Origin: an uncultured Clostridia bacterium
GTDB taxonomy: Bacteria > Bacillota > Clostridia > Christensenellales > UBA1242
DNA length: 64,000 bases
NCBI GenBank assembly: GCA_947649575.1
Contig: CANSRZ010000006.1
Coordinates: forward strand, 12,957 to 76,956
Reading direction: 5' to 3'
The notes under the pieces were generated by a model. The model worked only from the letters and a program-made list of their open reading frames with translations. It did no database searches and had not been told where the DNA came from. Positions 41,025 to 41,072 of this stretch are shown here, one piece after another; positions within the stretch are counted from its first letter, which is position 1; each line of letters opens with the position of its first letter. The position numbers and the translations under genes were made by a program.

Positions 41025-41072
41025 GCGTCACAGTTCAGTAAGGGTAATACTAACCTTACTGAACTGTGACGC
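41025..41072 (-). promoter_or_regulatory. Putative rolling-circle origin: 19-bp perfect stem with TAGTATTAC in the loop
   Basis: 41025-41043 pairs with 41054-41072. The loop 41044-41053 is GTAATACTAA on the + strand, which reads TTAGTATTAC on the rep strand. Confidence 0.8.

Follow-up and report, generated by a model that had tools for sequence, protein, structure and literature searches.

The window, a 64,000-nt stretch of a contig from an uncultured Clostridia bacterium, contains a perfect stem-loop at positions 41025-41072. Judged by sequence comparison, this stem-loop is very probably the plus-strand rolling-circle origin of a 12.2-kb temperate filamentous-phage-like element, which is inserted in a tRNA-Ala gene of a low-GC gut Clostridia-type chromosome. 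The loop presents the nonanucleotide TAGTATTAC, identical to that in the origin stem-loops of the Circoviridae and Nanoviridae, and the stem-loop lies just ahead of the gene of a replication protein (Rep) of the circovirus type. Features are on the minus strand of the window, which is the Rep-coding strand, unless the plus strand is named.

The stem arm at 41025-41043 (GCGTCACAGTTCAGTAAGG) pairs without mismatch with 41054-41072, as seen both by reading the sequence and with a repeat finder, and the resulting 19-bp stem encloses a 10-nt loop that reads GTAATACTAA on the plus strand and T-TAGTATTAC on the minus strand. The nonanucleotide (41044-41052) occurs as a single copy in the 64 kb. The stem is the longest perfect hairpin of the window, the runner-up having 15 bp, and perfect stems never exceeded 13 bp in first-order Markov simulations of the window (n = 60). 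The near edge of the stem is 107 nt from the ATG of Rep. An earlier note on this DNA, which had reported the 19-bp perfect stem, the T-TAGTATTAC loop and a distance of about 110 nt to Rep, is accurate on all of these points. A feature absent from that note is a set of five direct TGACGC copies (iterons) on the Rep strand between 40952 and 41032, on both sides of a spacer. The proximal pair (41017-41032) consists of TGTGACGC (41025-41032), within the 3′ arm of the stem, and then TTGACGC (41017-41023); the distal cluster (40952-40980), just ahead of Rep, reads TTGACGC, TTGACGC, and TGTGACGC. Between the two clusters, an A/T-rich mini-palindrome, CCTTTAAAATAAAGGG (40998-41013), has near-identical copies in two relatives (L002 and L003; L-numbers denote fetched loci), and it may be the site of the −10 region of the Rep promoter.

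The intergenic region that holds these features is 446 nt long (40918-41363) and highly structured as single-stranded DNA (ssDNA), with a minimum free energy of −101.3 kcal/mol (z = −10.3 versus shuffles). Two further perfect hairpins, at 41091-41127 and 41131-41165, lie 5′ of the origin hairpin on the minus strand and are candidates for a complementary-strand origin or a packaging signal. The sequence contains what characterizes an origin of the CRESS-DNA type (single-stranded, circular, and coding for Rep): a nonanucleotide NANTATTAC stem-loop, iterons by the stem, and an adjoining cognate Rep; the nonamer also lies on the Rep-sense strand, as this pattern requires. In circoviruses, nanoviruses, and geminiviruses, Rep nicks the nonanucleotide between positions 7 and 8. 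By analogy with circovirus and nanovirus biochemistry, the predicted nick, TAGTATT/AC, falls between 41046 and 41045. The Pfam/InterPro entry note is a further source for the nick position within the nonanucleotide.

The stem-loop and Rep are conserved together in relatives. Four genome loci and 80 metagenome loci were fetched, the latter with a Rep alignment as the query; a metagenome scan with the single Rep sequence gave no match. We counted co-conservation in the 75 bacterial and metagenome loci that have at least 250 nt upstream of Rep, with Reps 31-77% identical. An exact TAGTATTAC, on the Rep strand, in the loop of a perfect stem of at least 7 bp and at most 600 nt upstream, was found in 68 of the 75 loci at a median distance of 108 nt, whereas stems of this kind have a background frequency of 1.6% per position in these regions. 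The origin stems of these 68 loci comprise 21 distinct sequences; the loop nonamer stays the same even beside Reps of only 31% identity, whereas the stems vary in sequence. Covariation was assessed in 27 distinct hairpins, written as arm, nonamer, and arm with the extra loop bases edited out; a MAFFT alignment of the raw hairpins was discarded because their unequal loop lengths put it out of register. All 12 of the 12 stem pairs changed on both sides, and 92% of the cells were paired, compared with 48% in shuffles and at most 55% in slid-partner controls, but these hairpins had been preselected for perfect stems of at least 7 bp, and their inner pairs are paired by construction. The unbiased figure for co-conservation is therefore 68/75 against the 1.6% background rather than the covariation.

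The layout of the iterons is also kept: two copies abut the 3′ arm, followed by a spacer of ~45-60 nt and two or three more copies ahead of Rep. Their sequences differ by lineage (TGACGC, GCGTAACAT, GCGTCGCAT, TGTAAAAGT, GTCGCA, and AATCGCACA), which would be the behaviour expected of determinants of Rep-binding specificity. A search for joint conservation of Rep and stem-loop in relatives was the check that the earlier note had proposed, and the 68 loci with the exact nonamer answer it. Together with the iterons, the cognate Rep, and the compensatory stem changes, they strongly support its suggestion of a circovirus/nanovirus-type origin.

The same comparison bears on whether the hairpin could merely terminate transcription, or serve Rep or the upstream operon as an operator, without any nick site. 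Its location between two co-oriented transcription units would suit such a role, as would a weak promoter-like match (GTGACG-16-TAAAAT) that overlaps its 3′ arm. However, a T-run is absent after the stem, and a terminator scan made no call at the hairpin. The nine loop bases are invariant and the stem is free to change in sequence, whereas a terminator would need the reverse, and the loop is the exact known substrate of Rep nucleases whose homology to the window Rep was computed here. We consider a terminator or operator highly improbable.

Rep is a protein of 363 aa (39826-40917) with AGGAG ahead of its ATG. It contains motif I (LLTINNP), motif II (HFQ), motif III (YCSK, with Y96), Walker A (GPSGSGKT), Walker B (VIDEF), and motif C (IISN). 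Motif II is the HUQ variant, as in circoviruses and nanoviruses. Pfam matches were obtained to Viral_Rep (1.6e-15) and RNA_helicase (8.5e-10), and, by sequence alone, residues 14-230 match full-length porcine circovirus 2 (PCV2) Rep (7LAR) with an E value of 2e-23; the match to the nuclease of nanovirus FBNYV Rep (6H8O) has an E value of 2.6e-13. The HUQ, YxxK, and superfamily 3 (SF3) helicase motifs and the PCV2 match bear out the earlier reading of a CRESS-type Rep beside the hairpin. H58, Q60, Y96, K99, the G and K of Walker A, E222 of Walker B, and N264 of motif C are invariant in 17 homologues. A protein search returned 214 homologues of Rep with identities of up to 87%, and many of them lie on long bacterial contigs; the closest relatives with a named organism are uncultured Clostridia metagenome-assembled genomes (MAGs). 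NCBIfam gave no match for Rep, for the Zot-like protein described below, or for the flanking host genes, and the Rep and Zot-like genes, for neither of which NCBIfam has a model, are currently unnamed in annotation. Four homologues in the 17-homologue alignment (P0021, P0032, and P0041, ~435-450 aa, and P0113, 388 aa) have motif I at the very N-terminus, separated by an insertion of ~60-90 residues from the remainder of the nuclease domain. In L169, a second, 415-aa protein (P0024; 11251-12498) is encoded directly 3′ of Rep. Its identity to the window Rep is 74% across 67% of the Rep length; it has the helicase domain (PF00910) only and looks from its sequence like a nuclease-less Rep paralogue.

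The element is bounded by a perfect 46-nt direct repeat (46/46) and measures 12,223 bp, with a GC content of ~33%. The attachment core attL (38461-38506) is identical to attR (50684-50729), which equals the 3′ part of a tRNA-Ala(UGC) gene (50684-50760), the sole Rfam match, and a tyrosine integrase (49478-50575, plus strand) adjoins the tRNA gene. These features establish the tRNA integration that had been read from the sequence earlier. Relatives in MAGs occupy tRNA-Met, tRNA-Lys, and tRNA-Thr genes; their att repeats are 23-51 nt long, and the elements measure 10.8-12.0 kb. In minus-strand order, the element encodes small basic proteins, proteins of 78, 458, 658, 72, and 102 aa, a 271-aa ATPase, and a 128-aa protein; then come the intergenic hairpin region, Rep, a PAPS-reductase-like protein, and a MazF-like toxin. 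The plus strand carries an HTH_3 regulator, a 142-aa membrane protein, and the integrase.

This anatomy also speaks to the suggestion that the origin is an intact-looking relic of a domesticated or defective prophage that neither excises nor replicates. This exact element was not observed in excised form, and the best Rep match in the protein collection, at 87%, indicates that the element was sampled only once. The att repeats, however, are identical at all 46 positions, the stem is perfect over 19 of 19 pairs, all the open reading frames (ORFs) of the element are open, and the catalytic residues and Walker motifs of Rep are intact; moreover, the presence of relatives in different tRNA genes implies recent mobility of the family. 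A dead element is thus improbable.

The phage-like nature of the element is indicated by the 271-aa P-loop ATPase (41762-42577) of the Zot/pI family. Alone, this protein gives only weak Zot matches (Pfam, 0.011; PHROG 'Zot-like toxin', 1e-6). A profile of its 19-member family matches Neisseria meningitidis Zot (2R2A; N-terminal domain) at 1.4e-14, with the next match at 1e-3, and 11 of the 19 members pass Pfam Zot (best 1.6e-19) with no FtsK match. The inovirus-type assembly ATPase claimed in the earlier note is confirmed by these matches, and the protein has no closer similarity to another type of ATPase, as Roux et al. 2019 (PMC6813254) ask of a pI/Zot-like ATPase. The Zot-like protein lies 0.6-1.5 kb upstream of Rep in ~30 loci, and its family is large and better conserved than Rep, with 815 matches, the top 120 of which are all at least 68% identical. 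Of the other features expected near an inovirus ATPase, Rep, the placement of the genes on one strand, and the 78-, 458-, and 658-aa membrane proteins are present, but family searches matched no known coat protein.

In four further elements (L173-L176), a Zot homologue that is 74% identical (7001-7819) occupies the same position beside a Rep of the REP_ORF2-G2P type. These elements are inserted beside rpoB, and an rve/HTH_38 transposase replaces the tyrosine integrase. The 421-aa protein of L173 has no similarity to the 458-aa protein of the window, and hence the backbone is shared with the elements of G2P-type Rep only in part. Part of the morphogenesis backbone, at least the Zot-like ATPase, thus occurs with interchangeable replication modules, as has been stated for inoviruses (Kazlauskas et al. 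2019, PMC6668415; Roux et al. 2019). A small hairpin, GGGTTTGGGCA(G/A)AGCCCAAG, is nearly identical in L002 (9727-9746; CRESS-type Rep) and L173 (8296-8320; G2P-type Rep), and the window lacks a copy; this hairpin might act as a signal for packaging or for the complementary strand and move together with the morphogenesis genes.

Several relatives of this kind have been classed as inoviruses. Roux et al. 2019 list an inovirus protein family, iPF_00203 ('RCR + helicase', Viral_Rep), with 56 sequences. The GenBank 'bajarodino virus' genomes (PQ006121-PQ006185), of which we found no published description in the literature searched, are circular, come from rodent faeces, measure 5.7-10 kb, and are classed as Inoviridae. 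Several of them have Zot, an intergenic region, and a Rep that is 30-35% identical to the window Rep, in the same order, with an integrase and an HTH repressor on the opposite strand. Bajarodino viruses 30 and 74 have a TAGTATTAC stem-loop ahead of Rep. Counterparts of Zot (28%), of the 458-aa protein (27% over 499 aa), and of the HTH regulator and integrase are encoded by bajarodino virus 12. The window element differs from bajarodino viruses and inoviruses in that its Zot-like protein has no membrane segment; a coat protein is annotated in neither the window element nor the bajarodino genomes. In addition, L089, a human gut metagenome contig of 12,413 nt, has the same layout without a tRNA gene and a Rep that is 47% identical; its ends overlap by 55 nt, as is usual when the molecule is circular.

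Bacterial elements with circovirus-like Reps in tRNA genes have been described before. Kazlauskas, Varsani, Koonin and Krupovic (2019) defined pCRESS1-9, bacterial Reps with HUH and SF3 domains, 97.5% of which belong to elements that were inserted by tyrosine recombinases, chiefly into tRNA genes, and have flanking att repeats. Their pCRESS2 group occurs in Clostridia, Erysipelotrichia, and Mollicutes, with MolHR2-E1, HugHat-E1, and RumCAG-E1 as examples. They classed the elements as plasmids and stated that these have no known viral structural proteins; this statement stands against their own supplementary table, which lists Zot / 'I assembly protein' in HugHat-E1 (pCRESS2). The earlier note could not place the combination in any described family, a view that is not supported, as pCRESS, iPF_00203, and the bajarodino genomes are on record.

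We compared the window Rep by BLASTP with reference pCRESS Reps taken from the supplementary alignments of that study. It is 37% identical over 300 aa to WP_036328238.1 (MolHR2-E1; E value 2e-60), 36% to SCH60086.1, and 33% to CUP05665.1 (HugHat-E1), compared with 29% to pCRESS3 p4M (tblastn). WP_036328238.1 and SCH60086.1, basal members of pCRESS2 that were placed next to GasCSV-like viruses (PMC6668415), have the HUQ form of motif II and YCxK-DTR, as in the window Rep. In pCRESS2, the aspartates of Walker B are replaced by glutamates and the asparagine of motif C is kept (PMC6668415); Walker B of the window Rep, VIDEF, has Glu at one of the two positions, one homologue (P0076) has FEEF, and the motif C Asn is invariant. 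From these best pairwise matches rather than a tree, the window Rep likely belongs to pCRESS2. The window element resembles pCRESS2 elements in the HUH-type nuclease and SF3 helicase, the tyrosine integrase, the att direct repeats, the tRNA target, the size range (8-12 kb), the Clostridia hosts, and Zot, present in HugHat-E1; a difference lies in the low Rep identity of 33-37%. The signature genes of pCRESS1-3 (FtsK-like ATPase, SSB, and Sec10/PgrA) were not found in Pfam, PHROGs, and NCBIfam scans of the element.

The Bifidobacterium plasmid p4M (NC_003527; L177), the pCRESS3 archetype, is autonomous and encodes a CRESS-like RepA. Its origin (2730-2780) is a stem-loop, GTGGGCGG-CATAGTGTTAC-CCGCCCAC, followed by GTACCA GTACCA, 45 nt ahead of RepA; its nonamer, TAGTGTTAC, is one base off the canonical one, at position 5. 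A P-loop ATPase gene (1897-2673) lies directly upstream of the origin, but it has an FtsK/SpoIIIE domain and is not Zot. Compared with the window element, p4M is smaller (4.5 kb), is not integrated, and has an actinobacterial host.

Against a filamentous-phage-like element with this origin stand several points. A Kyte-Doolittle scan of the 271-aa ATPase gave no transmembrane segment, and a genuine pI is required to carry one or two (Roux et al. 2019). Family searches with Pfam and PHROGs recognized no coat protein in the element. IMG/VR holds no close relative; it gave only small CRESS genomes, to which the window Rep is ~30% identical (34% for the best match). The 12.2 kb of the element place it at the top of the size range of inoviruses, the 55-nt overlap of L089 could also be explained by a tandem copy, and the origin function of the window element is deduced by comparison of sequences.

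Several of these points would also suit an element that is not a virus but an integrated rolling-circle plasmid or an integrative mobilisable element, in which the hairpin has the same origin function and the Zot-like ATPase and membrane proteins serve DNA transfer or partition rather than virion assembly. The failure to recognize a coat protein, the missing membrane segment of the Zot-like protein, and the absence of close relatives from IMG/VR fit such an element, as do the FtsK/SpoIIIE-domain gene of p4M at the position of Zot and the report of Kazlauskas et al. that pCRESS elements have no known viral structural protein and, in pCRESS1-3, FtsK-like ATPases. In contrast, the ATPase of the window is specifically Zot/pI-like (2R2A, 1.4e-14) without an FtsK match, a close homologue of it accompanies a Rep of the filamentous-phage G2P type, the order of the genes and their layout on one strand are those of inoviruses, homologous circular faecal genomes have been deposited as Inoviridae, and Roux et al. 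count the Viral_Rep family among inovirus proteins. A plasmid of this kind seems to us unlikely, although it deserves serious weight.

For a filamentous-phage-like element, the following mechanism can be proposed. The element would be excised by the tyrosine integrase via the 46-nt att repeats, and Rep would bind to the TGACGC iterons abutting and following the stem. The stem-loop would be extruded or melted, and the HUQ/Y96 nuclease domain would cut TAGTATT/AC on the coding strand of Rep and of all the morphogenesis genes, with Rep remaining linked to the 5′ end. The 3′-OH would then be extended by a host polymerase while the SF3 helicase domain unwinds the duplex. After one round, Rep would cut the origin that has been regenerated and rejoin it, so that circular ssDNA with the polarity of the coding strand is released. 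The other intergenic hairpins may prime complementary-strand synthesis and/or mark the ssDNA for export by the Zot/pI-type ATPase. In inoviruses, the packaged strand is the sense strand, and the proposed ssDNA of coding-strand polarity agrees with this rule.

Close counterparts of the origin itself are found in eukaryotic viruses. In the origins of PCV and nanoviruses, which lie just upstream of rep, tandem iterons on the Rep-sense strand adjoin the 3′ arm. The window origin likewise has tandem iterons abutting the 3′ arm, in addition to the identical nonanucleotide, the HUQ motif II, and the PCV2 Rep homology. The elements as wholes are different: genomes of Circoviridae and Nanoviridae are ~1-2 kb, whereas the window element is 12.2 kb, is integrated in a chromosome by a tyrosine integrase, has a longer stem (19 bp), and carries filamentous-phage-type morphogenesis genes and no jelly-roll capsid gene. 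With its own integrase and no capsid homologue, it also falls outside the Cressdnaviricota, which have circular genomes of ~1-6 kb with Rep and capsid and no integrase of their own.

Since tRNA-integrated elements with circovirus-like Reps were described in 2019, the window element is a further example of them. Conservation of the cis origin, with the exact nonamer and the iterons on the 3′ side, across bacterial elements seems not to have been documented before. A nonanucleotide or stem-loop origin is mentioned neither in the main text of PMC6668415 nor in PMC6813254, and no publication linking pCRESS elements with a nonanucleotide origin was found in the literature searched. The link between pCRESS and eukaryotic CRESS-DNA viruses has so far been based on the similarity of the Rep proteins. 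In the window and ~70 related loci, the DNA target site of Rep is conserved too, the nonamer being identical while stems and iterons vary, and this pattern is independent evidence, at the cis level, that the replication module has a common ancestry. It is possible, though rather short of probable, that the whole cassette (Rep, the TAGTATTAC loop, and iterons abutting the 3′ arm, in the Rep sense) is common to filamentous-phage-like prophages of gut Firmicutes and to circoviruses and nanoviruses. If so, the cassette, and not the rep gene alone, would have moved between bacterial elements and eukaryotic viruses; some faecal 'CRESS-DNA virus' Reps and origins may derive from bacterial elements; and cross-recognition of the origins by bacterial and eukaryotic-virus Rep nuclease domains could be tested in vitro. 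In practice, a TAGTATTAC stem-loop ~100 nt upstream of Rep offers a rule for finding the origins of such prophages. The L173-L176 elements indicate, in addition, that one filamentous-phage-type backbone, shared in part, can have a G2P-type or a circovirus-type Rep at the same position.

Among the remaining genes, the 458-aa protein (45549-46925) combines a signal peptide with two membrane segments at the C-terminus, which resembles the topology of filamentous-phage pIII, and is kept in many relatives as well as in bajarodino virus 12. The 658-aa protein (43559-45535), with an N-terminal membrane anchor, a coiled coil, and DUF6273, is a candidate adsorption or structural protein, and the 78-aa single-pass membrane protein (46958-47194) is a candidate virion or assembly protein. 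The 128-aa protein between Zot and the intergenic region (41364-41750) is kept in L001 and L002. Pfam and PHROGs gave no match for the small ORFs or the 458-aa protein. The 102-aa protein (42631-42939), kept in L003, was examined as a possible ssDNA-binding protein and gave no match: a PDB sequence search returned nothing below an E value of 0.07, and Foldseek with a single-sequence AlphaFold model (pLDDT 80) nothing below 0.06. The HTH_3 repressor-like regulator (48432-48791, plus strand) is divergent from the structural genes. A 202-aa plus-strand ORF (41023-41631) crosses the intergenic hairpins on the non-coding strand and is almost certainly spurious, yet it could be called by an automatic gene caller.

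Two cargo genes lie 3′ of Rep. The PAPS-reductase-like gene (38965-39816; Pfam 1e-22, PHROG 424), between Rep and MazF, has a homologue in none of the related loci and looks like cargo specific to the window element. The MazF/PemK-like toxin gene (38642-38962), at the Rep-distal end, adjoins attL and has no recognisable antitoxin gene adjoining it. In L091 (11334-11654) and L092 (11092-11403), a MazF that is 49-58% identical lies directly 3′ of Rep, at 36 nt in L092.

Short repeated motifs (e.g., AAAGTTTAGTCA, TTGGGTCAAAA, and TTTTCCCAATAA) occur ~70-120 nt from both att cores, at 38576-38597 and 50589-50610 in the window, at 528-573 and 11698-11743 in L091, and at 1822-1895 and 12459-12507 in L092; they may be arm-type binding sites of the integrase. 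Beside the att site of L002 (278-807), three tandem units of ~195 nt each end in a fragment of the 3′ end of tRNA-Met, and these look like scars of repeated integration at one tRNA gene.

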